DNA from: an uncultured Bacilli bacterium
GTDB lineage: Bacteria > Bacillota_I > Bacilli_A > RF39 > UBA660
NCBI GenBank assembly: GCA_944372425.1
Contig: CALVZC010000002.1
Span: forward strand, 7,139 to 71,138
Reading direction: 5' to 3'
DNA length: 64,000 nucleotides
Part shown: piece by piece, positions 1,437-54,204 of the stretch
Layout: each line of letters opens with the position of its first letter
How positions within the stretch are numbered: the first letter of the stretch is position 1
Notes under the pieces: generated by a model
Databases searched by the model: none
Told to the model about the DNA's origin: nothing
What the model saw: the letters and a program-made list of their open reading frames with translations, nothing else
Program-made: the position numbers and the translations under genes

Positions 1437-2390
1437 ATGAATATTTTTGAATTATTAAGTTTTGATATTGTTGAATTTGTTACTTCAGTAGAGGGAATTT
1501 TGATTATTGTAGGCATTTTATTTTTAATAATTGGAATTGTGTTACTTTGCATGGGGAAAGGTAAAAAGAAAGAAGCTGTTTCTGAAACAACTGACATTAA
1601 CACATCAGTAGCGATAGAAAATATACCAAAAACACCAGTTGTTAATGATTCGCCTGTGATTACTCAGGAAACTCCAAAAGTTGAAATCCCAGTTGTAAGT
1701 GAACCAGAATTGGTTCAATCTGCTCCTACGGTTTTAAATAATACTAGTGAAGCTACCCCAATAGTTGTTCCTTCAACAACTGATGGTTTACAAGAAAGTG
1801 CAACAGCACCAGTAGTTGAACCTATTAATTTTACTGAAGAGACTAAAAATGATAATGTTGAACCCGAATCACTTGGAATAGATAATATAGTTGATAGTAA
1901 TAAAGCGGAGGAATTAAATGTTAGTTCTTTACAAACAGAAAAAGTTGATGCAGCCGTCGATAGTAATTTGAATGATGTTTCTGTTGTGAAAGGTGAACCA
2001 ACAGTTACTGTTTATGGTGGTACTAATCCAGAAACTGTAATAAAAAAAGAAAATTTAGAAGAAAAGCCAAGAGAAATATATGGTGGAGCCAATCCACTGG
2101 AAAATACAGCGCCAATTCCAACTAATACAGTTCGTGAAGCATATTCAGGTGGTATTGTTACTCCAACAACTTTAGTATCTGAACCAAAAGTAGAATCAGT
2201 ACCAGTAGTTGAAACTAATACAGAACCAGTATTAAATGAGCCAGTTATTACAAAAACTGCAGAAACTGTTACTACGCCAGATGTTTCACAATCTCAAAAT
2301 GAAGTATCAGCACCAATAGTATCAGAAACAGAAAATAAACCTGAAAATAAGATTAATGAAAAAGAAGAAATAGAAAAATTAGAATTTTAA
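1437..2390 (+). CDS. Membrane-anchored Thr/Pro/Val/Glu-rich surface protein of unknown function
   Basis: There is an N-terminal TM helix (ILIIVGILFLIIGIVLLC) followed by a low-complexity region with three Y(G/S)GG..P repeats. No recognisable catalytic domain. Confidence 0.5.
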   Translation: MNIFELLSFDIVEFVTSVEGILIIVGILFLIIGIVLLCMGKGKKKEAVSETTDINTSVAIENIPKTPVVNDSPVITQETPKVEIPVVSEPELVQSAPTVLNNTSEATPIVVPSTTDGLQESATAPVVEPINFTEETKNDNVEPESLGIDNIVDSNKAEELNVSSLQTEKVDAAVDSNLNDVSVVKGEPTVTVYGGTNPETVIKKENLEEKPREIYGGANPLENTAPIPTNTVREAYSGGIVTPTTLVSEPKVESVPVVETNTEPVLNEPVITKTAETVTTPDVSQSQNEVSAPIVSETENKPENKINEKEEIEKLEF

Positions 2391-2420
2391 ATACCATAAA
2401 AATTTATGGTATTTTTTTTC
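2391..2420 (+). terminator. Rho-independent terminator
   Basis: Hairpin ataccataaa/tttatggtat followed by a T8 run directly after the stop codon. Confidence 0.6.
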
Positions 2421-2470
2421 ATAAAAAATTATTTAAGACATAATATTATTGTAGAAAGGAAGATATAATA

Positions 2471-2731
2471 ATGGAAACACTTAAGGTATCAAATAAATCA
2501 AATCCAAATTCTGTTGCAGGCGCTCTAGCAAATATATTTAAAGAAAAAAATAAAGTTGAGGTGCAATCTATAGGCGCAGGTGCTTTAAATCAGGCTATAA
2601 AAGCAATAATAATTTGTAGAGGATTTTTAGCACCTGCTGGTAAAAATTTAGTCTGTGTACCGTCGTTTACAGATATAATGATAGGTGAAGAAGAAAGAAC
2701 TGCTATAAAATTACTAGTTGAAATTGTGTAA
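2471..2731 (+). CDS. spoVS: Stage V sporulation protein S homolog
   Basis: The 86-aa product closely matches SpoVS: LKVSxKSNPNSVAGALA...IGAGALNQA.KA..IARGF.AP.G..L.C.P.FTDI.I..EERTAIKL.VE. Confidence 0.85.
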   Translation: METLKVSNKSNPNSVAGALANIFKEKNKVEVQSIGAGALNQAIKAIIICRGFLAPAGKNLVCVPSFTDIMIGEEERTAIKLLVEIV

Positions 2732-2875
2732 TAATTTTATAATTTAATCTAATAATATAGAGTATAATTCTATATTGTTTTTTTTTTATGAAATAAAATA
2801 ATTATAAATATAGTAAAACAAAAATAATAAGTTTGCATAAAATTAGAAATTTATTTAAAATTTTAAATTGTAAAC

Positions 2876-2904
2876 TTGAAAAGTTCAATAAAAATGTTTA
2901 TACT
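2876..2904 (+). promoter_or_regulatory. Sigma-A-type promoter TTGAAA-N17-TATACT
   Basis: Read directly from the sequence upstream of pilin gene 1. A TG lies 2 nt upstream of the -10 hexamer (extended -10-like). Confidence 0.5.
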
Positions 2905-2928
2905 TTATTTAAGGTAGGTGAATTTGTT

Positions 2929-3498
2929 ATGAAATCTAGCAAGGCTTTTACTTTGATTGAACTTTTGGCTGTTGTTGTAATTCTAGGTGTTATTATGACA
3001 ATAGCAATTCCGAATATTGTGTCAACTATAGATAAGAACAAAAAAGAAACTTTTCTTGAAGATGCAAAGCAAATGATTAGTTCGGCTGAATATAAAATAA
3101 GAAGTGATACTTCTATTAATTATCCAGATCAATATAGCGTAGTTATATTAAAATTAGAGAATCTAGAAAGTGCAAATTTAGAAATGTCTCCATATGATAC
3201 TTATTATTCAAAAGAAAAATCTTTTGTTGCAATAACTAAAGAACAAATAACTGGAACTACAGACTATGAATACGTTTTTTATGCACATTTGGTTTCTTGT
3301 ACTGATGAAAAGTGTGAAAACTTAGAAATCGATTCGGCAGCTTATAATAGAGGAATTAATTTAAGTAGATTAACTGATTTAAACACTTCTGATAGATTTG
3401 ATTTAGTATTAAAAGGTGCCGATGTAGAAAGAGATTTGATTGAAAATGTTGACAATATTAAAACAATGCTTGACAGAGACATTGTAAATATATATTAA
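2929..3498 (+). CDS. Type IV prepilin-like protein (ComGC/pseudopilin-like), paralog 1
   Basis: MKSSKAFTLIELLAVVVILGVIMTIAIP is a class III signal peptide / N-methylation motif (xFTLIE). An RBS AAGGTAGGTG lies 8 nt upstream of ATG 2929. The track start 2833 is in-frame upstream read-through. Confidence 0.8.
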   Translation: MKSSKAFTLIELLAVVVILGVIMTIAIPNIVSTIDKNKKETFLEDAKQMISSAEYKIRSDTSINYPDQYSVVILKLENLESANLEMSPYDTYYSKEKSFVAITKEQITGTTDYEYVFYAHLVSCTDEKCENLEIDSAAYNRGINLSRLTDLNTSDRFDLVLKGADVERDLIENVDNIKTMLDRDIVNIY

Positions 3499-3586
3499 TG
3501 TATGAAATATAAGCCATTAATTTGTTGACAAAAAAAAAATAATATAATAAAATTAATTTATAAGATAAGAGAGGAAGGATTTTTAA

Positions 3587-4249
3587 ATGAAAAAAATAAA
3601 TAAAAAAGGTTTTACGTTAATTGAATTACTTGCAGTTATCATTATACTAGGTGTTTTAATGATTATTGCTATTCCTAGTGTTACTGAGTATATTTCAAAT
3701 TCTAGGAAAAGTGCTTTTGCAGATAGTGCTGTAGGTTATATTGATAGTACTAGAAATATGGTTAACCAAGCACAAAAAGTTTCATTTTTCGATGTTAACA
3801 CATTATATTTAGTACCTGTTGGACATGATGAAACATTATCTTGTGTATCACTTGAAAAAGGTGGGGTATCTCCATATTCTGATACATGGGATTATGCTTA
3901 TGTAGGTGTTACTTATAGTGGTACAAGTTACAATTATTATTTTATAGCTAAAGATGGTTCAAATCAAGGAATCAATTTTGTAAGCCAAGATGAACTTGCT
4001 GATAAAACTGGTGATCTTGTAGTTTCTGGATCTAATGAATTAAGAAATTACGATGCATTAAAGACTCAATATGCACAAAAAACTACAGATAAAATTTATT
4101 TAATGCAAGCACCAGATGAAGGTGAGGGAGAAGTTTGGACTGAACCTGCAACACCTGATTCAGTTAAGAGTATTGCTGAAGTAATTAGCGATGCTGAAGG
4201 TAAAACTATCACACAAATCGAAATTGTTGCAGTTGATAATTGTAAATAA
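3587..4249 (+). CDS. Type IV prepilin-like protein (ComGC-like major pilin), paralog 2
   Basis: MKKINKKGFTLIELLAVIIILGVLMIIAIP is a canonical prepilin leader with KGFTLIE cleavage/methylation site and an RBS GAGGAAGG. It shares the EKGGxSPxxxxxxYxYVxVTYxGxxYxYY block with paralog 1 and the pilin-LRR protein. Confidence 0.85.
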   Translation: MKKINKKGFTLIELLAVIIILGVLMIIAIPSVTEYISNSRKSAFADSAVGYIDSTRNMVNQAQKVSFFDVNTLYLVPVGHDETLSCVSLEKGGVSPYSDTWDYAYVGVTYSGTSYNYYFIAKDGSNQGINFVSQDELADKTGDLVVSGSNELRNYDALKTQYAQKTTDKIYLMQAPDEGEGEVWTEPATPDSVKSIAEVISDAEGKTITQIEIVAVDNCK

Positions 4250-4283
4250 ATAATTTAAAAATAATGTAAATTCAATTAAGGTA

Positions 4284-4311
4284 AGGATGATCAATTCATC
4301 CTTTTTGTTTT
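4284..4311 (+). terminator. Rho-independent terminator
   Basis: aggatga-tcaat-tcatcct hairpin followed by ttttgtttt. Confidence 0.6.
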
Positions 4312-4357
4312 GTTGCTTTTTTTTAATATTTATAATAAAATTTTTATAGGTGATTTT

Positions 4358-5230
4358 ATGTTAATATTAGGTAGTCATGTTAGTTTTAATTCTAAAGAAC
4401 AATTATTAGGAAGTGTTAGAGAAGCTATTAGTTATGGAAGTAATACTTTTATGTTTTATACTGGTGCTCCCCAGAATACTTTTAGAAGTAAAATATCTTT
4501 TGAAAAAACAAGTGAAGCAGTAAAGTTAATGGTTGATAACAATATAGAAGTAAAGAATATAGTAGCTCATTCTCCATATATAATTAATTTAGCTAACGAT
4601 AAAGATGAAGAAAAATATAATTTTTCAATAAATTTTTTGATTGAAGAAGTTAAACGCTGCTCTGAAATGAAAATTAAATATTTAGTTCTTCATCCGGGCA
4701 GTCATGTCGGTTTAGGTATCGATAAAGGTATTAATAATATTATTAAAGCTTTAAACATAGTTAATAAGCAAAATGATAGTGTAGTAATATTACTTGAGAC
4801 AATGGCAGGAAAAGGGACTGAGATAGGATCTAATTTTTTTGAATTAAAAAAAATAATTGATGGTGTAGAAGATAAAAGTAAAATAGGTATCTGTCTAGAT
4901 ACTTGTCATTTAAATGATAGTGGTTATGATATTGAAAATTTTGATTCGCTTTTAGATGAATTCAATCAAATAATAGGAATAGATTATATTCGTTGTGTTC
5001 ATATTAATGATAGTAAAAATATTAGCGGTTCTAAAAAAGATAGACATGAAAATTTTGGTTATGGAACTATTGGATTTGATACTTTAATAAATATTGTTTA
5101 TAATAAAAGACTTGAAAATATTCCTAAAATACTTGAAACACCTTGGATAGGAGAGAAAGCACCTTATAAAGAAGAAATTGAAATGATAAAAAATAAAAAA
5201 TTTAATGAAAAATTAAAAGAAATAGTGTAA
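4358..5230 (+). CDS. nfo: Endonuclease IV (AP endonuclease, Nfo)
   Basis: TIM-barrel Nfo motifs: VLHPGSH, LLETMAGKGTEIG and ICLDTCH. RBS TAGGTGA precedes ATG 4358. Confidence 0.9.
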   Translation: MLILGSHVSFNSKEQLLGSVREAISYGSNTFMFYTGAPQNTFRSKISFEKTSEAVKLMVDNNIEVKNIVAHSPYIINLANDKDEEKYNFSINFLIEEVKRCSEMKIKYLVLHPGSHVGLGIDKGINNIIKALNIVNKQNDSVVILLETMAGKGTEIGSNFFELKKIIDGVEDKSKIGICLDTCHLNDSGYDIENFDSLLDEFNQIIGIDYIRCVHINDSKNISGSKKDRHENFGYGTIGFDTLINIVYNKRLENIPKILETPWIGEKAPYKEEIEMIKNKKFNEKLKEIV

Positions 5231-5543: not shown

Positions 5544-7571
5544 ATGAAAAAAATAAAAAATAAGAACAATTTAAAAAATAATATTAATAAAAGATTAAAT
5601 ATATTGAAAGTTATTATATATTTATCTTTTATAATAATATTATTACAAATATTTAATATTTCGATACTAAAAAATACCTATTATAATAAATTATTAATTG
5701 AAAAGACAAATAATACTTATTCCTTTGCAACAGTTCCTCGTGGGAAAATATATGATAGAAATTATAATGTTATTGTAGATAATATAAGCATACCTGTACT
5801 TTATTATTTAAAACCTAATAAAGTAGATTCTATAAGTGAAATTAAATATGCTAATTTTCTTAGTGAAATTATTGATTTAGATTATTCAAAACTTACTGAA
5901 AGAATGTTAAAAGATTATTGGTTAATAGAAAATGCTAGTGTTTCTAAAGAATTGATAAGTGAAGAAGAATGGCAGAAATATGAAAATAGAAAACTTGACG
6001 ATGAAGATATTTATTATTTAAAATTGAGTAGAATAAATGAGGAAGAATTAAATAAATATGATGATATTAAAAGAAAAGCTGCATATATATATTATTTAAT
6101 GAATAATGGTTATTCATATGAAGAAAAAATAATAAAAAAGGAAAATTTGACTGATTTAGAACTTGCAAATATTTCTGATAATTTAGAAAAGATTCCAGGT
6201 TTTTATATAAAGTATGATTGGGAAAGAGTGTATCCATATGGAGATACATTTAGATCTATTTTAGGAAATATATCAAAGATATCTAAAGAAGAAAAAGATT
6301 ATTATTTATCTAAAGGTTATTCTTTAAATGATATAGTAGGCGTAAGTTATCTTGAAAAACAGTATGATGATATATTAAGAGGGGAAAAAGGTACTTATAC
6401 TATTGATAATAATGAAATTGTTACGATTAGCCAAGGAAAAAGAGGTAATGATATTGTTTTAACTATCGATATAGAATTACAACAAGAAATTGAAAAAATA
6501 CTAGAAGAAGAAATTATTAAAATAAAAAAAGATCCTGGAACTGATTTGTTTAATCATATATATGTTGTGATTAATGATCCTAATACAGGTGAGATTTTAG
6601 CAATGGCCGGTAAGCAAGTAATTAAAAAGAATGGAGAATATTATACTTATGATGTTACTACTGGTGTAATTACTAATTCAGTAACTCCTGGAAGTGTAGT
6701 TAAAGGTGCTTCGATGTTAGTTGGTTATAATGAAAATGCTATAGAAATAGGGGAATATCAGGTTGATGAATGTATTAAGTTATATTCTAAACCAGAAAAA
6801 TGTTCATGGACAACATTGGGAAGAATAAATGATATAACAGCATTGAGTCAATCTTCAAATGTATATCAGTTTAAAACAGCAATGAAGGTTGCAGGCTATG
6901 AATATACTTATAATGGAAAGTTTACCGATACTGAAGAAGCGTTTAAAAAGTATCGCAAAACTTTTAATGAGTTTGGTTTAGGTGTAAAGACAGAAATAGA
7001 TTTACCTATTGATGGAATTGGTAATGTTGGAAAAAGTAGTGAGCCAGATTTGCTTTTAAATTACGTAATTGGACAATATGATACTTATACTACTATGCAA
7101 TTATCAGAGTATATTTCTACAATAGCAAATGGTGGTATAAGATATAAACCTCATTTATTAAAGGAAGTTTATGAAAGTAATAATGGTAGTAATTTAGGAA
7201 CACTTTTGTATAAACAAGATAGTATAATTCTTAATAAAGTTACTACTAAAAAAGAATATATTGAAAGAGTACAATTAGGTTTTAGAGAAGTTATGACTAC
7301 TGGTCTTGGAAAAAATTATATGAAAGGTGTACCATCTCCTGCTGGTAAAACAGGCACTTCAGAATCATTTATCGATACAAACGACGATGGAATAATAGAT
7401 ACACCTACCATTACTAATTCTTTTGTAGGATATTATCCTTTTGAAAATCCTAAAATGTCTATGGCAGTAACATTTCCTAATATAGTAAGTTCTGATAGTG
7501 ATAATAGAAGTTATGGTAATATTAGAGTTACTAGATTAATTGCTAATAAATTCTTTGAATTATATGGATAA
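5544..7571 (+). CDS. Penicillin-binding protein 2-type transpeptidase
   Basis: N-terminal TM anchor. Transpeptidase motifs SVVK-like, SSN (SQSSNVYQ) and KTGT (AGKTGTSESF). Confidence 0.9.
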   Translation: MKKIKNKNNLKNNINKRLNILKVIIYLSFIIILLQIFNISILKNTYYNKLLIEKTNNTYSFATVPRGKIYDRNYNVIVDNISIPVLYYLKPNKVDSISEIKYANFLSEIIDLDYSKLTERMLKDYWLIENASVSKELISEEEWQKYENRKLDDEDIYYLKLSRINEEELNKYDDIKRKAAYIYYLMNNGYSYEEKIIKKENLTDLELANISDNLEKIPGFYIKYDWERVYPYGDTFRSILGNISKISKEEKDYYLSKGYSLNDIVGVSYLEKQYDDILRGEKGTYTIDNNEIVTISQGKRGNDIVLTIDIELQQEIEKILEEEIIKIKKDPGTDLFNHIYVVINDPNTGEILAMAGKQVIKKNGEYYTYDVTTGVITNSVTPGSVVKGASMLVGYNENAIEIGEYQVDECIKLYSKPEKCSWTTLGRINDITALSQSSNVYQFKTAMKVAGYEYTYNGKFTDTEEAFKKYRKTFNEFGLGVKTEIDLPIDGIGNVGKSSEPDLLLNYVIGQYDTYTTMQLSEYISTIANGGIRYKPHLLKEVYESNNGSNLGTLLYKQDSIILNKVTTKKEYIERVQLGFREVMTTGLGKNYMKGVPSPAGKTGTSESFIDTNDDGIIDTPTITNSFVGYYPFENPKMSMAVTFPNIVSSDSDNRSYGNIRVTRLIANKFFELYG

Positions 7572-7625
7572 TTGTGTTATAATAACTCATGTTGCAACTT
7601 TTTATATATCTTTAATAAAAAAAAT

Positions 7626-9247: not shown

Positions 9248-10477
9248 ATGGATAATAAAATATATAAATTGGTTAACGAGTGTGAAAAAGAAGTTAAAGA
9301 ACAATTTGATGAGATAAATATTTTATGTGAAAAAAACAGTTTGAAAGTTCTTAATGCTTTTAGAAATAATAATGTTTCAGAAGCTCATTTTAGTTCTTCT
9401 ACAGGATATGGTTATAATGATATTGGAAGAGAAGTAATAGAAAAAGTTTTTGCTGAGGTTTTAGATGGTGAAGATGCAATAGTTAGAAGTCAATTCATTT
9501 CTGGATCTCATGCTTTGACAGTAGCTTTTTTTGCTTTTTTAAGACCTAATGATATTCTTTTAAGCATTACAGGTAAACCATATGATACGTTAGATGAAGT
9601 TATCGGAATAAAAGAAAATGCTAGTTCTTTGAAATCTTTTGGTGTAAGATATGAGCAAATTGATTTAATTGATAATGAATTTGATTATGATAAAATAGAA
9701 AAATTTTTAAATAATAATAAAGTAAAAGTTATTGAAATTCAAAGATCTAAAGGTTATTCTACAAGAAAAAGTATCGATGTTTATAAATTAGAGAATGTTA
9801 TAAAATTTATAAGAAATATAGATAAAGAAGTAATAATAATGATTGATAACTGTTATTGTGAATTGACAGAAGAAAAGACTCCTTTGACAGTTGGTGCTGA
9901 TATAATTGTTGGTTCTTTAATTAAAAATCTAGGTGGAGGAATTGCTCCTAATGGTGCATATATTGCAGGAAAAAAAGATTTAATAACACTTGCAGCCGAA
10001 AGATTAACTTTGCCAGGTGAAGGACGTGAAGTAGGACCTACTTTAGGTATTAATAAGAGCTTATTGCAAGGATTATTTTTAGCACCAAGTGTTGTTGCTA
10101 ATAGCCTTAAAGTTGCAGTTCTTACTAGTAAAGTATTAGAAAGATTAGGTTATGATGTAGAACCAAAATATAGTGAACATAGATGTGATATTGTACAAAA
10201 TATTATTTTTCACGATAAAGAAAAACTTATTAAATATTGTCAAGGAATTCAAAATGCTTCTCCAATCGATTCTAATGTTCTACCAATTCCTTGGGATATG
10301 CCAGGATATTCGGATCAAGTTATAATGGCAGCTGGGACATTCATTCAAGGATCTTCTATCGAGTTATCATGTGATGGACCGATAAGAGAACCATATATTT
10401 CTTATCAGCAAGGCTCCCTTACATATGAATATGGAAAATTAGCTATTATTAACGCAATAAGCAATATATTAAATTGA
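9248..10477 (+). CDS. PLP-dependent aluminium-resistance/methionine gamma-lyase family protein (YnbB-like)
   Basis: About 410 aa with an overall match to the Cys/Met-metabolism PLP family (aluminium resistance protein family). ATG lies 4 nt after the SDR stop. Confidence 0.75.
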   Translation: MDNKIYKLVNECEKEVKEQFDEINILCEKNSLKVLNAFRNNNVSEAHFSSSTGYGYNDIGREVIEKVFAEVLDGEDAIVRSQFISGSHALTVAFFAFLRPNDILLSITGKPYDTLDEVIGIKENASSLKSFGVRYEQIDLIDNEFDYDKIEKFLNNNKVKVIEIQRSKGYSTRKSIDVYKLENVIKFIRNIDKEVIIMIDNCYCELTEEKTPLTVGADIIVGSLIKNLGGGIAPNGAYIAGKKDLITLAAERLTLPGEGREVGPTLGINKSLLQGLFLAPSVVANSLKVAVLTSKVLERLGYDVEPKYSEHRCDIVQNIIFHDKEKLIKYCQGIQNASPIDSNVLPIPWDMPGYSDQVIMAAGTFIQGSSIELSCDGPIREPYISYQQGSLTYEYGKLAIINAISNILN

Positions 10478-10528
10478 CAATTATTTTTTCGCTTGTTACA
10501 ATAACAACTACAAATTGGAGGGACATTT

Positions 10529-11431
10529 ATGTATGATTATAATAATTTAAATGAAATAGAAAAAGCAGTTATTTCATCAGTTGCTCAAATAACTCAAATA
10601 TTTAAACCAACTAAAGAACAGTTGTTCTTGTTTAAAAGCTATTTAGAAGACATTCTTTTATATGAGATAATTTCTTGCAAAACAAATTGTGTTAAAATAG
10701 GTATTGATGATGGAAATATTTCTGATAATTTAAGAATTGCCTTGATTGCTTCTGGTATTTCTTCAAATGGTAATTTGCCTAAAGATATAACTTACAATAA
10801 TAGTAATATTCATGTTAATATTAACACACACTTGCATGCTAAAAGAATGAGTAGAATTTTAGAAAATGAACGTCTACGAAGTATGTATTCTCAAAGAGTA
10901 TCAGATGCTATATATAATTGCAATAAATTTAAAAATATGTATGAATTAGTTGAATTAGGAATTGCTGGTATAGAAAGAGAATGTGGATATATCGAGAGCT
11001 TAGATACATCCGATGATTTTTATTTTGGTGCATATTTAGGTTTATGGGAAATTGAAAGAGATAATTTAGAAAAAATGGGCTTAGAAAATTCTCTTGCTTA
11101 TGATATTTGTAGTTATGTTAATGACTTAGATGATGGTAATAGAGGTTTTAGACATTATCCTTTAGCTACTAATGTTGCCCTTTGTCGAATGGCTGATATA
11201 GACTTTTCTATAGCAACAACTGGAGATTTTAATAATAAAGAAGTATTAATTGATACTTTAAGAAATATAGAAGCAGCAAAAATTACTGATAAGGAATTAA
11301 TTGAACCATTTGAAAAAAGGTTTTTAGAGATTGTTAAGCCTTATGCTAAGAAAATGGGTGTTTCTCTACCAAAAATTAAAACAAATTCTTTAAAAAAGCA
11401 TTTAACAAATATTAGCAAATATTTTGTATAA
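10529..11431 (+). CDS. Hypothetical protein (300 aa)
   Basis: Good RBS GGAGGG. No recognisable motif. Confidence 0.6.
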   Translation: MYDYNNLNEIEKAVISSVAQITQIFKPTKEQLFLFKSYLEDILLYEIISCKTNCVKIGIDDGNISDNLRIALIASGISSNGNLPKDITYNNSNIHVNINTHLHAKRMSRILENERLRSMYSQRVSDAIYNCNKFKNMYELVELGIAGIERECGYIESLDTSDDFYFGAYLGLWEIERDNLEKMGLENSLAYDICSYVNDLDDGNRGFRHYPLATNVALCRMADIDFSIATTGDFNNKEVLIDTLRNIEAAKITDKELIEPFEKRFLEIVKPYAKKMGVSLPKIKTNSLKKHLTNISKYFV

Positions 11432-11488
11432 ATTGCTTTTTTTTTGACATTTTATATATAAAGTTTTAAAATGAATATGGTGATTTAA

Positions 11489-12109
11489 ATGAATGAAAAT
11501 TATCAAATAATTTTAGATAAAATAATAGATAATATTATAGTAAATAATGAAAAACCTACCTTATTACTTCATAGTTGTTGTGCTCCTTGTTCTTCATATG
11601 TACTTGAATATTTGTCTAAATATTTTCTTATAACGGTTTTTTATTATAATCCTAATATTTCTTCTAAAGAGGAGTATTTAAAAAGAATGAACGAGCAGAA
11701 AAAATTTATTGAAGGAGTAAATTTCGCTAATCCAGTAAGATTCATTGAGGCACCTTATGATAATGAAAAGTTTGAAAATATAATTTTAGGATTAGAAAAA
11801 GAGCGTGAAGGTGGATTACGTTGTCATAAATGTTACTATCTTAGACTTGAAGAAACTGCCAAATTTGCTTCCAATAATCATTTTGATTATTTTACGACTA
11901 CATTATCTGTAAGTCCTTATAAAAATTCTAAAGTTTTGAACGAAATTGGAAAAAAATTAAGTGAAATTTACAATATTAAATATCTTTATTCTGATTTTAA
12001 GAAAAAAAATGGTTATAAACGTAGTATTGAGTTATCTCATATTTATAATCTATATAGACAAAATTATTGTGGTTGTAAATATTCTAAAAAAGAAAATATA
12101 GAGGATTAA
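11489..12109 (+). CDS. queH: Epoxyqueuosine reductase QueH (DUF208)
   Basis: LLLHSCCAPCSSY and CxxC (CHKCYY) and GCKYS motifs typical of QueH. Confidence 0.85.
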   Translation: MNENYQIILDKIIDNIIVNNEKPTLLLHSCCAPCSSYVLEYLSKYFLITVFYYNPNISSKEEYLKRMNEQKKFIEGVNFANPVRFIEAPYDNEKFENIILGLEKEREGGLRCHKCYYLRLEETAKFASNNHFDYFTTTLSVSPYKNSKVLNEIGKKLSEIYNIKYLYSDFKKKNGYKRSIELSHIYNLYRQNYCGCKYSKKENIED

Positions 12110-12110
12110 T

Positions 12111-12635
12111 ATGAATATAAAATGTATAAAAACAGGATTTTTAGAGGAAAATTGTTATATTTTAGAAAAAGATAATGAATGTTTGATAATTGATCCTGGT
12201 AGTGATTTTAATAATATTAAAAGCAATATTAAAAATAAAGTTATTGGGGTTTTAATTACTCATAGACATTATGATCATATTGGGGCGTTAGAGCAAGTAT
12301 TAAATGAGTATAAAGTTCCAATATACGAAAAAATAAATTTAGATGAAGAAAATTATAAATTAGGGAATTTTTCTTTTAATGTTATATTTACTCCTGGTCA
12401 TACTAATGATTCAGTTACTTATTATTTTTATAAAAATAAAGTAATGTTTACAGGCGATTTTCTTTTTTTTAATAATATAGGACGTTGTGATTTAGAAGGT
12501 GGAAATTTTTCTGAAATGAAAAAATCAATCGAAAAAATAAAAAGATATGATGATAATATTAAAATATATCCAGGTCATGGACAAACGACAACTTTAGCTA
12601 GAGAAAAAGAAAAAAATATCTATTTTAATAGTTAA
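12111..12635 (+). CDS. MBL-fold metallo-hydrolase
   Basis: THRHYDHIG (HxHxDH) metallo-beta-lactamase motif. Confidence 0.85.
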   Translation: MNIKCIKTGFLEENCYILEKDNECLIIDPGSDFNNIKSNIKNKVIGVLITHRHYDHIGALEQVLNEYKVPIYEKINLDEENYKLGNFSFNVIFTPGHTNDSVTYYFYKNKVMFTGDFLFFNNIGRCDLEGGNFSEMKKSIEKIKRYDDNIKIYPGHGQTTTLAREKEKNIYFNS

Positions 12636-12672
12636 ATTTATGTTATTATATTTATAATAAGAGGTGTTTAAT

Positions 12673-12984
12673 ATGTATATTGATTTAACTATATTAATAA
12701 TTTTATTGTTATTGGTTTTATTTTTCTTTAGAAGATTTTCTAGTTTTGTTTATGCTGTAGCAATAATTGATATTTTTTTAAGAATATTAGATTTTATTAA
12801 AGATAATGTTCCTATACCAGAACTTAAGGCTCTGATAGGTAAATATTTACCTAGTAGTATTCCTTCAGTAATTGGAAAATATTCAAATGGTATTTTTTAT
12901 ACAATATTAATGTGGGTATTTGTGTTTATCTATATATGCTTTTTATTTTATGTTACTAGGACATTTGTTCATAAGAAAAAATAG
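12673..12984 (+). CDS. Small membrane protein
   Basis: Three predicted TM helices. RBS AGAGGTG lies 7 nt before ATG 12673. Confidence 0.5.
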   Translation: MYIDLTILIILLLLVLFFFRRFSSFVYAVAIIDIFLRILDFIKDNVPIPELKALIGKYLPSSIPSVIGKYSNGIFYTILMWVFVFIYICFLFYVTRTFVHKKK

Positions 12985-13003
12985 TGTTTTCTAATTAAAA
13001 TAC

Positions 13004-13032
13004 TTGATAATTGTCTATAATTATAATATAAT
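13004..13032 (+). promoter_or_regulatory. Promoter TTGATA-N17-TATAAT for the rimP-nusA-infB operon
   Basis: Read directly from the sequence. Confidence 0.45.
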
Positions 13033-13045
13033 TATCGTAGCAACT

Positions 13046-13072
13046 GGTGGAAGAAGACTTCCACCTTTTATA
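13046..13072 (+). terminator. Leader terminator/attenuator hairpin in the nusA operon leader
   Basis: Perfect 8-bp GC-rich stem ggtggaag-aaga-cttccacc followed by ttttatatt. It lies between the promoter and the rimP RBS. Confidence 0.6.
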
Positions 13073-13088
13073 TTGATGAGGTGATAGT

Positions 13089-13337
13089 TTGAAAGAAAGA
13101 GTAATTAATTTAGTTGGTAATAAACTAGATAATTTAAATGTTCATATATATGATGTTGTATATGAGAAAGAAGGAAAAAATAATTATTTAAGAGTAGTTT
13201 TAGATAGTGAAGAAATGATAGATATTGATAAAGTGGTAGAGGCTACTAAAATAATAGATCCTTTATTGGAAAAGGAAAATATTATTGAAGAAAAATATAT
13301 ATTAGATGTTTATGCTAAATCAAAGGGAGATGATTAA
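13089..13337 (+). CDS. rimP: Ribosome maturation factor RimP, N-terminal domain only (82 aa)
   Basis: TTG start after AGGTGAT. The position is immediately upstream of nusA and the ORF ends 1 nt before it. Only the N-terminal RimP-like domain is present (full RimP is about 150 aa). Confidence 0.55.
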   Translation: MKERVINLVGNKLDNLNVHIYDVVYEKEGKNNYLRVVLDSEEMIDIDKVVEATKIIDPLLEKENIIEEKYILDVYAKSKGDD

Positions 13338-13338
13338 A

Positions 13339-14442
13339 ATGAATGGAAAAGAATTTATAAAAGCAGTTGATTTGATTGTTAAAGAAAAAGGTATAGAAAA
13401 AGATGTTGTTTTTGAAGCAATGGAGTTGGCACTTGCTACTGCTTATAAGAAAAATTTTAATTCTTTAACTAATTCTAAAATATTAATTGATAGAAATACT
13501 GGTGATATAAAAGTATATTCTTATAAAACTGTAGTGCCTGATGAAATGGAAAATGATGATAGTGATGATGAAGAAAAAGAGGAATTTAATCCAAATTATC
13601 ATATTACACTTACTGAAGCAAGAAAATTTAATAAGTCTTTAAACATTGGAGATACTATTGATACTGAAGTAACACCTAAAGACTTTGGGAGAGTTGCAGC
13701 GTCTACTGCTAAACAAGTTATTATTCAAAAAATAAGAGAAGCTGAAAGAAATTCTATTATGGAAGAGTATGGAGATAAACAAGATGAATTATTAGTTGGT
13801 ACTGTTGCTTTAGAGGATGTTGATAATTATTTTATAGATCTTGGTAGAAGTAATGGTATACTTCCTAAAAAAGAATGTATCCCATCAGAAAAAATAGAAA
13901 TGGGAAAACAAATAAAAGTATATGTAAGTAAAGTTGAAAATACTGGAAAAGGCTTATTTATTTTATTATCAAGATGTCACTATGGATTTCTAAAGAGACT
14001 TTTTGAATTAGAAATACCAGAGATAAATGATGGAAGTGTTTTAGTTTATAGTGTAGCACGTGATGCTGGATCAAGAAGTAAAGTTGCTGTTTATAGTGAA
14101 TATTCTAATGTTGATCCAATTGGAGCATGTATTGGTGAAAAAAGAAGTAGAATAACAAGAATTATTGATGAATTATCAGGTGAAAAAATTGATCTTGTAA
14201 AATATGATAAAGATCCTGCAGTATTTATTGCTAATGCTTTAGCTCCTGCTAAAAATCTACACGTAATAATAACTGATCCTAAAAAACAAGAGGCTATTGT
14301 AGTAGTAGATGATGATAATTTTTCTTTAGCTATTGGAAAAAAAGGACAAAATGCTAAACTTGCTTCAAAATTAACTCATTATAAAATAGATATTAAAAAT
14401 ACTGAACAAGCAAGAGAAATGGGTATAAATTTTAAAAATTAG
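13339..14442 (+). CDS. nusA: Transcription termination/antitermination factor NusA
   Basis: MNGKEFIKAVDLIVKEKGI.. is the NusA N-terminus. S1 and KH domains are present. RBS AAGGGAG. The track start 13306 is an in-frame upstream extension. Confidence 0.95.
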   Translation: MNGKEFIKAVDLIVKEKGIEKDVVFEAMELALATAYKKNFNSLTNSKILIDRNTGDIKVYSYKTVVPDEMENDDSDDEEKEEFNPNYHITLTEARKFNKSLNIGDTIDTEVTPKDFGRVAASTAKQVIIQKIREAERNSIMEEYGDKQDELLVGTVALEDVDNYFIDLGRSNGILPKKECIPSEKIEMGKQIKVYVSKVENTGKGLFILLSRCHYGFLKRLFELEIPEINDGSVLVYSVARDAGSRSKVAVYSEYSNVDPIGACIGEKRSRITRIIDELSGEKIDLVKYDKDPAVFIANALAPAKNLHVIITDPKKQEAIVVVDDDNFSLAIGKKGQNAKLASKLTHYKIDIKNTEQAREMGINFKN

Positions 14443-17751: not shown

Positions 17752-17760
17752 TGATATACT
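17752..17760 (+). promoter_or_regulatory. Extended -10 element TGaTATACT
   Basis: Read directly. It lies immediately upstream of the GC-rich structured region. Confidence 0.4.
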
Positions 17761-17834
17761 ATAAATGTCTAAGAGATTAGAAGTGTTTTTTAAAACCGAC
17801 TAAGTAACGATACGGGAGTTCGGAGCGAGTCAAT

Positions 17835-17871
17835 CTGTGTTGAATGCCTATTTTTAATAGGAATCCTAAGG
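17835..17871 (+). repeat. 37-nt direct repeat, copy 1
   Basis: Identical to 17902-17938. It contains the internal hairpin cctatt-ttt-aatagg. Confidence 0.9.
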
Positions 17872-17901
17872 TGGTCGCGGTGACCTTTTCACCACGGCTA
17901 C

Positions 17902-17938
17902 CTGTGTTGAATGCCTATTTTTAATAGGAATCCTAAGG
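17902..17938 (+). repeat. 37-nt direct repeat, copy 2
   Basis: Identical to 17835-17871. Confidence 0.9.
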
Positions 17939-18024
17939 GTTGAGTATGGACACCCACCTGCGAGAATGCGGGTTTTTCGTACACCTATCTTTTGGACATT
18001 TTTTTATGCAAAAAAGGAGATTAT

Positions 18025-18714
18025 ATGTTTGAACGTTTAGAATTATTAATAGGTAAAGAATCTTTAGAAGAAATAAAAAATAGTAAAATTTTAATAGTAG
18101 GAATAGGTGGAGTAGGTGGAAGTGTTGCTACATCTCTTGTTAGAAGCGGTGTTCAAAATATTGTGCTAATTGATTTTGACATAGTGGATATTACAAATAT
18201 TAATAGGCAGGTAGTAGCATATCATTCTACAATTGGCTTAAAAAAAGTAGATGTAATAAAAAAGATTCTTTTAGATATTAATCCTTCTTTAATAGTCAAA
18301 ACTTATGATATTTTTTTAAACAAAGATAATATAAAAACTATATTAGACGAAGAAAAACCAACATATATTATTGATGCTTGTGATTCTAAAGAAACTAAAA
18401 AGAGTATTATTTTAGAAGCAATATCGAGAAAAATAAAATTTATTTCTTCGATGGGAACAGGTAATAAAATGAATCCATCTGACTTAGAAATTATTGATAT
18501 TAGAAAAACTGTTAATGATCCTTTAGCAAGAATTTTTAGAAAATGGGTAAAGGATAATAAAATTAAAAGTAAAATAACTGTATTATCTTCACGTGAATTA
18601 CCAATAAAAACAGGTAATATTGTTTCATCGAACAGTTTTGTACCCACAAGTGCAGGTCTACTTATCACTAGTTATGTTATTAAAGATATTATAAATGATG
18701 ATAGTAAAGATTAA
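18025..18714 (+). CDS. tcdA: ThiF/MoeB-family tRNA threonylcarbamoyladenosine dehydratase (TcdA-like)
   Basis: ILIVGIGGVGGSVATSLVRSGV Rossmann motif of the E1-like ThiF family. About 230 aa, the TcdA size class. RBS AAGGAG. Confidence 0.75.
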   Translation: MFERLELLIGKESLEEIKNSKILIVGIGGVGGSVATSLVRSGVQNIVLIDFDIVDITNINRQVVAYHSTIGLKKVDVIKKILLDINPSLIVKTYDIFLNKDNIKTILDEEKPTYIIDACDSKETKKSIILEAISRKIKFISSMGTGNKMNPSDLEIIDIRKTVNDPLARIFRKWVKDNKIKSKITVLSSRELPIKTGNIVSSNSFVPTSAGLLITSYVIKDIINDDSKD

Positions 18715-18749
18715 ATTTTATTTGCATAAATTAATATCGAGGTGGTTTT

Positions 18750-51978: not shown

Positions 51979-53457
51979 ATGAGAGAATTTACAGAACAAG
52001 AATTAGTTAGAAGAGAAAAGCTTGATTTTTTAAGAGAAAAAGGAATTGATCCTTTTGGGAAGAAATATGATGTTAATACGACAACTAAAAATTTAAAAGA
52101 AGAATTTGAAAACAGTACAACAGAAGAACTTGACGAATTAAAAAAAGAAGTTTCTATTGCAGGAAGAATTATGACAAAAAGAGGTAAAGGGAAAGCAGGA
52201 TTTATAAATCTTCAAGATAAATATGGACAAATTCAAATATATGTTAAATTAGATAATATTGGAGAAGAAGCTTATTCTGTATTTGATAAATCAGATTTAG
52301 GTGATATAGTAGGAATCAAAGGAACTGTTATGCGTACTCATATGGGTGAATTAAGTATTCGTGCTTTAGAGTTTACTCATCTAGTTAAAGCTCTTCGCCC
52401 TCTTCCAGATAAATTCCATGGATTAGTTGATATTGAGGAAAGATTTAGAAGAAGATATGTTGATTTAATAGTTAATGAAGATGCTCGTAGAGTAGCATTT
52501 GCTAGAGCAAAGATTATTAGATCAATTCAGCATTATTTAGATAATCTAGGTTATACAGAAGTAGAAACACCAGTTTTAGGTACCGTTTTAGGTGGTGCAG
52601 CAGCAAAACCATTTATTACTCATCATAATACATTAGATATTGATATGTATTTAAGAATTGCTACTGAATTATCATTAAAAAGACTTATTGTTGGTGGAAT
52701 GGATGCTGTATATGAAATTGGAAGATTATTTAGAAATGAAGGAATGGATAAAAATCATAATCCTGAATTTACTACAATTGAAGTATATAAAGCGTATAGT
52801 GATTTAGAAGGAATGATGGAGTTAACAGAGGGTATTATTTGTAATGCTTGTATGGAAATTAACAATTCTTACGATATAGAATTTCGTGGTCAAAAAATAT
52901 CATTAAAACCAGGATTTAAAAAAATTTCAATGTGTGATGCAATTAAGAAAGAAACAGGAGTAGATTTTAAAAATATTAAATCTTTTGAAGAAGCTAAAAA
53001 AGTAGCTGAAGAACATAATATTGAAATAGAAAATCATTTTGGTTATGGTCACATAGTAAATGCTTTCTTTGAAAAATATGTAGAAGAAAAATTGATTGAA
53101 CCAACCTTTGTATATGAATATCCAATAGAGATAACACCACTTGCTAAAAAAGAACCAGACGATGAAAGATTTACTCAAAGATTTGAACTTTTCATTGCTG
53201 GTGGAGAATATGCTAATGCTTATACTGAATTAAATGATCCAATAGATCAATATGAAAGATTTGAAAATCAATTGAAAGAAAAAGAGTTAGGAAACGAAGA
53301 AGCAAACGAAATGGATATTGATTTTATAGAAGCTCTAGAATATGGTATGCCACCAACAGGTGGAATGGGAATGGGAATAGACCGTTTAGTAATGTTACTT
53401 ACTAATAGTGAGACAATAAGAGAAGTAATTTTATTCCCAACAATGAAATTAAAGTAA
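51979..53457 (+). CDS. lysS: Lysine--tRNA ligase (class II)
   Basis: N-terminal OB anticodon-binding domain. Class II motifs FRNEG and [15 protein letters not shown]. Confidence 0.95.
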
Positions 53458-53463
53458 TTAAAA

Positions 53464-53497
53464 AAGTTCATTTTATAACTGCAATGAACTTTTTTAT
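53464..53497 (+). terminator. Rho-independent terminator
   Basis: aagttcatt-(10-nt loop)-aatgaactt followed by ttttt. Confidence 0.7.
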
Positions 53498-53547
53498 TGC
53501 ACAAATATATTATTAAGTAGTAGAATATTGTGAGAAAGGATAATATT

Positions 53548-54204
53548 ATGACTTTAAAAGAAAAAATTGAAATACCAAAATATTCACTAGGTGAGGAAAT
53601 AATGAGTGCAATAACTCATGGAATAGGAGCATTATTATCAGTTGCTGCTTTAGTTATCTGCATTGTTTTTAGTGCAATAAGTGGAAGCGCATTGTCTGTT
53701 GTAAGTAGTTGTATCTATGGTACTACACTAATAATTCTTTATACAATGTCTACATTATATCATTCATTGAAGGTAAATAATGCTAAAAGAGTATTTAGAA
53801 TTATTGATCATTGTAGTATATATCTTTTAATTGCAGGAACTTATACACCATTTACTTTATTAGCACTGCCAAAAACTATTGGTTTAATATTATTTACAAT
53901 AATATGGATAATTGTAATCTTAGGAATTGTTTTAAATTCTATTGATTTAAAGAAATTTAGAATTATTTCTTTTATAAGCTATCTCATATTAGGTTGGATT
54001 ATTGTTTTTGCTTTTAAACCACTAACTGAAGCAGTTGCTAAACCAGGAATTATGTTATTAGTAGCTGGTGGTTTTTGCTATACAGTAGGTTGTATTTTTT
54101 ATGGCGCTGGAAATAAAATTAAATACATGCATTCAATATTTCATTTATTTGTTTTAGCAGGATCAATTCTTCATTTTTTTTCTATATTGCTTTATGTTAT
54201 TTAA
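53548..54204 (+). CDS. Hemolysin-III family (PAQR) membrane protein
   Basis: 7-TM protein. The N-terminal EEIMSAITHGIGALLS and the HxxxH region are typical of the hemolysin III family. Confidence 0.85.
   Translation: MTLKEKIEIPKYSLGEEIMSAITHGIGALLSVAALVICIVFSAISGSALSVVSSCIYGTTLIILYTMSTLYHSLKVNNAKRVFRIIDHCSIYLLIAGTYTPFTLLALPKTIGLILFTIIWIIVILGIVLNSIDLKKFRIISFISYLILGWIIVFAFKPLTEAVAKPGIMLLVAGGFCYTVGCIFYGAGNKIKYMHSIFHLFVLAGSILHFFSILLYVI

Follow-up and report, generated by a model that had tools for sequence, protein, structure and literature searches.

How type IV pilins can be put to use when none of the genes for their assembly is found nearby is the question raised by a 64 kb stretch of DNA (hereafter the window; 25.7% G+C) from an uncultured gut bacterium. 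The window has matches in metagenome scaffolds, and the metagenome-assembled genomes (MAGs) of relatives bear labels such as 'uncultured Bacilli', 'Clostridium sp.' and 'Erysipelotrichia'. Two adjacent genes on its + strand, pilin 1 (2929..3498) and pilin 2 (3587..4249), encode prepilins, and a third (22781..24724, + strand) encodes a pilin fused to a leucine-rich repeat (LRR) module, referred to here as the LRR-pilin. The analysis presented below indicates that pilins 1 and 2 probably constitute a conserved two-gene cassette and act as functional type IV pilin subunits from two old, lineage-specific subfamilies of pilin heads, with their processing, assembly and individual roles deduced from sequence.

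Two type IV prepilins

The pilin 1 open reading frame (ORF) codes for a protein of 189 amino acids that carries a type-1 head, in which the leader MKSSKA is followed by the mature part FTLIELLAVVVILGVIMTIAIP, with FTLIE as its N-terminus. Pilin 2 is 220 amino acids long, carries a type-2 head, as assigned from profiles and family alignments, and consists of the leader MKKINKKG and the mature part FTLIELLAVIIILGVLMIIAIP. Both proteins score above the cut-offs of the Pfam N_methyl model (29.1 bits for pilin 1 and 31.6 bits for pilin 2; gathering score 21.2) and of TIGR02532 (26.4 and 30.5 bits; cut-off 16.3), which confirms the initial annotation of the two genes as encoding prepilins, and the LRR-pilin, whose leader ends in ...FTKIKG, does so as well (25.3 and 25.0 bits, respectively). 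In all three, a short hydrophilic leader, basic in pilins 1 and 2 and with Gly or Ala as its last residue, precedes the motif FTLIELLAV(V/I)..., with Glu at position +5, and about 20 hydrophobic residues; a six-frame motif scan of the 64 kb found only these three class III signal motifs. The leaders of pilins 1 and 2 had been described as near-identical, and the leaders proper turn out to be merely similar.

Some gene callers choose for pilin 1 an alternative TTG start at 2833, which gives a product of 221 amino acids. The ATG at 2929 is the better start, since the start codons of the orthologs lie 5–8 residues ahead of the cleavage site and a Shine–Dalgarno-like AGGTAGGTGA is located 7 nt upstream of this ATG.

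The residue at position −1 of pilin 1 is Ala in every sequenced strain of the species with an intact N-terminus, and Gly in all of the orthologs from seven other species. As the leader peptides of type IV filament (T4F) proteins 'invariably' end in Gly or Ala, with cleavage after either (review PMC10191384), Ala(−1) is a derived and species-fixed, yet permitted, cleavage residue. The same rule excludes a processing defect; the earlier suggestion that Ala(−1) may alter processing is thus weakly supported, with a quantitative effect still conceivable.

The NCBIfam models for ComGC, GspG, PilA and others match the first 30–60 residues only, with scores far below their cut-offs. ComGC (NF040999) yields 30.9 bits for pilin 1 and 32.3 bits for pilin 2 against a cut-off of 75, over model positions 1–35 of about 84, and GspG (TIGR01710) yields 34.6 and 29.5 bits against 88.85, again over the N-terminal part. 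Likewise, a family profile compared with all PDB sequences matched solved pilins over positions 3–60 only, PilE1 (8pfb) being among the matches for the N-terminal helix of the window pilins. None of the three proteins matched Flp/TadE (PF07811) at E ≤ 1, in a scan that detects true TadE in a related locus (L021).

A family of pilin heads

The three proteins had been grouped as one family by a shared diagnostic block, and the block peptides are indeed present, as LEKGGVSPYSDTW in pilin 2, LEKGGKSPFGEW in the LRR-pilin and EMSPYDTYYS in pilin 1. In full-length BLASTP comparisons, pilin 2 is 51% identical to the LRR-pilin (119 amino acids; E = 9e-31) and pilin 1 is 33% identical to pilin 2 (183 amino acids; E = 1e-16). 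Because the universal N-terminal helix inflates full-length scores, the heads were also compared by themselves: those of pilin 2 and the LRR-pilin are 39% identical over 76 residues (E = 2e-11), those of pilins 1 and 2 align with E = 0.024 and 29% gaps, and no alignment was obtained between the heads of pilin 1 and the LRR-pilin. When pilin-1-type heads from seven other species were compared with the alignment of pilin-2-type heads using hhalign, a probability of 77% (E = 2e-5) resulted, with 86 aligned columns in register across the whole head. The 24-residue segment KGFTLIELLAVIIILGVLMIIAIP occurs unchanged in both pilin 2 and the LRR-pilin, encoded with synonymous differences at 14 of its 24 codons, and pilin 1 deviates from it at five of the 24 residues.

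By these measures, pilin 2 and the LRR-pilin are true head-domain paralogs, and pilin 1 is a remote relative from a separate, older subfamily with orthologs of its own, sharing a family with the other two at the superfamily level only. The diagnostic block and the identical peptides with many synonymous differences, both proposed in the initial annotation, therefore stand for pilin 2 and the LRR-pilin, with a weak share for pilin 1, and the three-member family stands as a superfamily. A recent tandem duplication as the origin of pilins 1 and 2 is ruled out by their separate orthologs and by the marginal similarity of their heads.

The positions conserved in the family alignments include, in pilin 2 numbering, Cys86 and Cys219, Ser95-Pro96, Trp101 and Tyr117-Tyr118. 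At least 90% of family members retain the two cysteines, which suggests a disulfide tying down the C-terminus of pilin 2.

A profile of the head only (97 positions, without the N-terminal helix) retrieved 750 proteins at E ≤ 1e-3, of which 442 reach E ≤ 1e-10, from 1.84 billion protein cluster representatives, and in the matched proteins the head is almost always found at around residues 42–140, directly after the helix. The heads of the three window proteins themselves have no Pfam, NCBIfam or PDB match. Since the standard profiles (ComGC, GspG and those of solved structures) stop at the N-terminal helix and the head-only profile finds about 750 representatives, the block is not a generic feature of all ComGC proteins, the circumstance that would have spoken against a specific paralog family; it is the mark of a specific pilin-head family, which many modular pilins also use as their carrier module. 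Indeed, about 30% of the best 150 matches are long proteins. When 43 long proteins were scanned (42 matches and the LRR-pilin), N_methyl was found in 38, LRR_5 in nine and DUF285 in seven, and further long members carry DUF6273, HINT/pretoxin, lectin-like or pectate-lyase-like domains.

Two peculiarities were observed among the members of this family. Some of the long proteins carry PT-HINT, Hint_2 or intein-splicing domains, which suggests pilin-anchored polymorphic-toxin-like proteins. In a few representatives, among them P0040 (317 amino acids), the head is located at residues 100–350, behind a non-pilin N-terminal region, which in P0040 starts in a hydrolase-like manner with MKKNELFFPSKDKK; wrongly called starts, chimeric assemblies and true fusions are all conceivable explanations for such cases.

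The LRR-pilin (647 amino acids) combines a type-2 head (residues ~16–135) with a BspA-type LRR module, identified by four LRR_5 matches (E = 2e-59). Its domain order, N_methyl at 14–38, the pilin head to about 135 and LRR_5 stretches from about 192, agrees with the definition of a modular pilin (Raynaud et al., 2021). The gene lies between an rseP-like gene and smc, and the corresponding position upstream of smc is taken by a pilin in a related locus (L015). Five tandem genes in another uncultured Bacilli MAG (L011:1291–12052) encode full-length homologs of 679–691 amino acids with 37–42% identity. Within the 90% cluster of its own species the LRR-pilin is found with lengths of 614, 639, 647, 649 and 653 amino acids, a polymorphism that probably arises from differences in repeat number or start site.

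AF2 models of pilin 2 built on the family alignment have a pLDDT of 81–82 and a pTM of 0.75 for the full-length protein and 0.83 for the head only. In the predicted structure, a helix some 50 residues long leads to four β-strands and then to a C-terminal α/β extension, and the conserved block comprises the hairpin of strands 2 and 3 together with the loop that precedes it. A Foldseek search of the PDB with the full-length and head-only models returned nothing below E = 0.9.

A conserved chromosomal slot

In the window, the cassette has spoVS-like and nfo-like genes as neighbours. The same slot, SpoVS–[1 to 4 pilin genes]–Nfo–(DUF2624)–PBP2–L33–EF-P, recurs in many related low-GC loci of uncultured Bacillota, and a pilin-1-type gene followed by one or more pilin-2-type genes is present in L005, L008, L009, L013, L014, L090 and L091. 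The Nfo and PBP2 proteins at related slots are only 41–62% identical to those of the window, and the persistence of the slot despite this divergence means that the cassette has long been kept; the arrangement is old, with a copy number that varies among lineages.

The surroundings of the slot also vary. In at least nine related loci (L093, L096, L091, L094, L051, L101, L005, L109 and L110) an ORF of 139–143 amino acids (MNTMKQSYIFEYQNENDFRKKERT; L093:8118–8546) is located between spoVS and the pilin cassette. No match in Pfam, NCBIfam or the PDB was obtained for its product, which is 84–93% identical in seven loci (tblastn), in which the pilin heads are 35–78% identical to those of the window; it is absent from the window (2732..2928) and from the whole window species. 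In two loci of close relatives, pilin 2 is separated from nfo by lysS and a gene of the hemolysin III family (L093:10145–12356 and L109:10790–13001), and in the window this pair is found at 51979..54204, about 48 kb from the cassette, a difference in position that implies rearrangement around the cassette.

Expression signals and strain variation

The best promoter-like site of the region, TTGACA-17-TAAAAT (3525..3553, + strand), is located upstream of pilin 2 and has 11 of 12 consensus matches, and the putative promoter is followed by a ribosome-binding site rated as strong, GAGAGGAAGGA, placed 7 nt ahead of the ATG. Upstream of pilin 1, the consensus scan found TTGAAA-17-TATACT (2876..2904, + strand) with ten of 12 matches, a weak candidate. 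Matches to promoters and ribosome-binding sites are common in AT-rich DNA, and the scan returned 21 promoter-like sites for the region, where 15.3 would be expected from such a composition. A hairpin followed by a T-run downstream of pilin 2 (4283..4303, + strand) is the only terminator-like site within 2300..4500; none was found between the two pilin genes. In clostridia, a c-di-GMP riboswitch is located upstream of pilA. A search for regulatory RNA gave no Rfam match in the window at the gathering score and none in 2400..4400 at E ≤ 1.

Relative to a second strain (L088), the window shows a marked divergence of pilin 2 (dS 0.29, dN 0.09, dN/dS 0.31; 86% amino-acid identity) and a smaller one of pilin 1 (dS 0.11, dN/dS 0.14), with a dS of 0.02–0.05 for most flanking genes and of about 0.16 for those encoding EF-P and QueH. 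The pilin ORFs are intact in all sampled strains. Together with the scrambling of synonymous codons and the presence of orthologs of both types elsewhere, the dN/dS ratios bear out the initial view that the duplications are old and have been under purifying selection. They also speak against the possibility that these genes are functionless, decaying relics of a lost pilus system, which is highly improbable for three intact pilin genes within 64 kb with dN/dS well under 1, good ribosome-binding sites and promoter-like sites, even if there is no machinery within about 84 kb and both the ATPase found at the same slot in L023 (see below) and the upstream ORF of the relatives are missing from the window.

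Among 16 alleles of pilin 2 from the species, 43% of positions vary in residues 44–71 and 28% in residues 171–220, and only 6% in the N-terminal helix (residues 9–43), which, including Glu+5, is invariant across the family alignment. As synonymous and nonsynonymous divergence are both raised within a short island, the exchange of diverged alleles by recombination is favoured over positive selection in place. Since a variability pattern of this kind is known for exposed pilus subunits, pilin 2 is proposed to be exposed and abundant, with pilin 1 as a conserved minor subunit. A second strain-divergent island of the window is formed by an ORF of 300 amino acids with no Pfam match (10529..11431; 86% amino-acid identity, dS 0.34, dN/dS 0.22), the neighbours being at least 96.8% identical with the exception of pilin 2.

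Assembly machinery

That no assembly genes are found in the 64 kb holds as initially reported, and extends to the 10 kb upstream and the 10 kb downstream of the window. Walker A motifs of the form GxxGSGK[ST] occur in the 64 kb only in two ORFs read as FtsK and SMC and in one of 591 amino acids without an assigned family. In about 45 low-GC relative loci, no T2SSE ATPase is encoded within 10 kb of the pilin genes, with the exceptions of L023 and L066. In L023 (1654–6206), the same slot contains a 397-residue ATPase (− strand), two pilin-like ORFs of 171 and 154 amino acids with the atypical motifs GYFLVE and GFTLYE, and four pilins (+ strand), followed by Nfo–DUF2624–PBP2–EF-P. In L108, a modular pilin of 1229 amino acids with the head described here (9875–13564; domains Gly_rich_2, CHB_HEX_C and Y_Y_Y) is located 4 kb from a T2SSE ATPase of 506 amino acids (410 bits), which is 60% identical to that of L023 over about 400 aligned residues and is again divergent from two pilin-like ORFs (17758–20258).

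L108 originates from the same sample as L093, which contains a pilin 2 ortholog with a 78% identical head; the two have similar coverage (8.8 and 8.4, respectively) and the best mutual tetranucleotide correlation (0.991), and are probably from one genome. A close relative of the window organism therefore probably keeps its ATPase at a separate locus, and it is plausible, by analogy, that the window pilins are serviced in trans by distant machinery. Since the same slot in L023 adjoins a T4F ATPase, the orphan state in the window looks like the outcome of rearrangement rather than a special design.

Genes of a different pilus type were also observed in the relatives. In one uncultured Bacilli MAG, the pilin–Nfo slot is followed 4 kb downstream by a Tad-type locus (L021:14187–18759) with two TadE-like proteins, a ParA/CpaE-like protein, a CpaF-type T2SSE ATPase and two T2SSF proteins, and L035 contains a Flp-like ORF (7319–7582).

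The linked ATPases bear on the kind of filament that the pilins would form. The usual minimal type IV filament of monoderms is the competence (Com) pilus for DNA uptake, and several observations are compatible with the window pilins being its subunits rather than those of an adhesive pilus: judging by gene content, the organism is a monoderm of the low-GC Bacillota type, the ATPases of L023 and L108 lack the PilB N-terminal domain and are short (397 amino acids in L023), the pilin-like ORFs beside the ATPase faintly match ComGE and ComGD (E = 3e-4 to 4e-3), and ComGC is among the best NCBIfam matches of both pilins. These last matches, however, comprise only the first 30–35 residues, at 31–32 bits against the cut-off of 75, and the window proteins are about twice the size of ComGC. 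The ATPases are closer to GspE/PilB (521 and 486 bits for these models) than to ComGA (265 bits, under the cut-off of 300), and a co-directional operon of the comGA–GG type was seen in none of the loci read through. The adhesin-type modules borne by the same head and the hypervariability of pilin 2 better fit an exposed adhesive filament, and a Com pilus is considered to be unlikely.

Alternatively, the class III signal peptide and the head could act solely as a membrane anchor and surface-display stalk, cleaved and not polymerized into a long filament, like the substrate-binding proteins of the archaeal 'bindosome'. Such a role would be in keeping with the numerous genes for this N-terminus that are scattered over the genomes, some of them very long and with diverse C-terminal modules, and with the distance from an ATPase of most of the ~45 low-GC loci. 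This is improbable, nonetheless, given that the invariance of the N-terminal helix, Glu+5 included, is what would be expected under selection for helix–helix packing in a filament, that L023 and L108 physically link the family to an extension-type ATPase, and that short cargo-free members such as pilins 1 and 2 would have no obvious purpose as anchors.

A model for the window pilins

The pilins of the window are thus best interpreted as subunits of a type IV filament. The class III signal peptide would insert each prepilin into the membrane, where a prepilin peptidase encoded elsewhere would cleave it after Gly or Ala(−1). A T4F machine consisting of an extension ATPase and a platform, also encoded elsewhere in the genome, would then polymerize the pilins through their invariant N-terminal helix. 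Most likely, pilin 2 would be abundant and exposed at the surface, pilin 1 would be a conserved subunit of low abundance, and the LRR-pilin would use the same head as a carrier to display its adhesin-type LRR module on the same filament.

Four points weigh against this interpretation. No prepilin peptidase, ATPase or platform gene is encoded in the window or in the 10 kb on either side (~84 kb). Mature pilin 2, with 212 amino acids, is large for a major pilin of a monoderm. The 'pilin fold' of the head is proposed solely from the order of predicted secondary-structure elements, with no significant Foldseek match in the PDB, and the assignment of major and minor subunits draws only on variability and on the quality of promoters and ribosome-binding sites.

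A broader proposal, which we consider doubtful, is that the head marks a distinct and undescribed T4F subtype of uncultured, reduced-genome gut Bacillota, in which the pilin-anchored surface proteins would form a large repertoire, dispersed and evolving rapidly, that depends on one minimal machine. If so, the repertoire would range from plain pilins to LRR, DUF285 and lectin adhesins and even HINT/pretoxin modules, the machine would be built on an N-terminally truncated GspE/PilB-like ATPase divergent from the pilin genes as in L023 and L108, and the pilus would be the main surface-display platform of the organism rather than a single-purpose appendage.

Comparison with known systems

A close parallel is provided by Streptococcus sanguinis, in which modular pilins have an adhesion module grafted onto the pilin head (PMC8179133). 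Its type IVa pilus (major pilins PilE1/PilE2, and as modular minor pilins PilB with a vWA module and PilC with a lectin module) shares with the window a monoderm host, class III signals and the combination of more than one non-modular pilin with a modular one. In contrast to the dispersed genes of the window, those for the S. sanguinis pilins all cluster with the machinery (PMC10191384); moreover, neither sequence comparison nor Foldseek matched the head of the window pilins to PilE1 or another solved pilin, and the grafted module is a BspA-type LRR instead of a vWA or lectin module. Such a module has been recorded before, since the BspA-type LRR (IPR026906) is among the extra domains in the 15 commonest architectures of modular pilins (Raynaud et al., 2021), and the LRR-pilin, which is exactly N_methyl plus PF13306, corresponds to the IPR012902 + IPR026906 architecture of that study. 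The latter is, however, a database census in which no member was studied, and the head family, the tandem arrays of L011 and the link to short paralogs are not described there.

Dispersal of pilin genes is also familiar. Genes for type IVa pilins are often scattered, with species-specific minor pilins encoded apart from the machinery, and the distance of the window pilins from assembly genes resembles that of ComP, PilV and PilX in Neisseria and of scattered pil genes in Pseudomonas and Neisseria, the products of which depend in trans on a single peptidase and machine (PMC10191384). Those organisms are diderms with known machinery, whereas that of the window is a monoderm, in which clustering is more usual, and its system is known from the pilin genes. 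With ComGC–ComGG of the Bacillus and Streptococcus Com pilus, the window pilins have in common the monoderm filament, the N-terminal motif and the best-scoring named NCBIfam models; they differ in the below-cut-off scores confined to the helix, in their approximately twofold length, in the lack of a comG operon context and in the affinity of the relatives' ATPases to GspE/PilB.

A further comparison is with the uncultured gut order TANB77, which has a conserved Tad-type pilus cluster (Kim et al., 2024; PMC11680825). There too, pilus genes are a conserved hallmark of an uncultured, low-GC gut clade with reduced genomes, and a Tad locus is likewise found in the relative L021. The TANB77 cluster comprises CpaB, TadZ, CpaF and TadBC with TadE-like pilins, in contrast to the PilA/GspG/ComGC-type N_methyl of the window proteins, which is not of the Flp/TadE type; the 'conserved pilin' of TANB77, being Tad-type (PMC11680825), is ruled out as the same system.

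Dispersed pilin genes and pilin–LRR fusions are therefore already known kinds, and the locus adds two type IV pilins to a huge superfamily. What is mildly new is the combination of an unmatched head family, fixed chromosomal slots, an allelically hypervariable pilin 2 and the reuse of the head as a carrier in uncultured gut bacteria with small genomes. With about 750 representatives, fixed slots, strain variation and adhesin-like cargo, the head family suggests that attachment by pili is important to gut bacteria that have not been grown, for which pilin 2 and the LRR-pilin provide concrete candidates for studies of host or partner binding.

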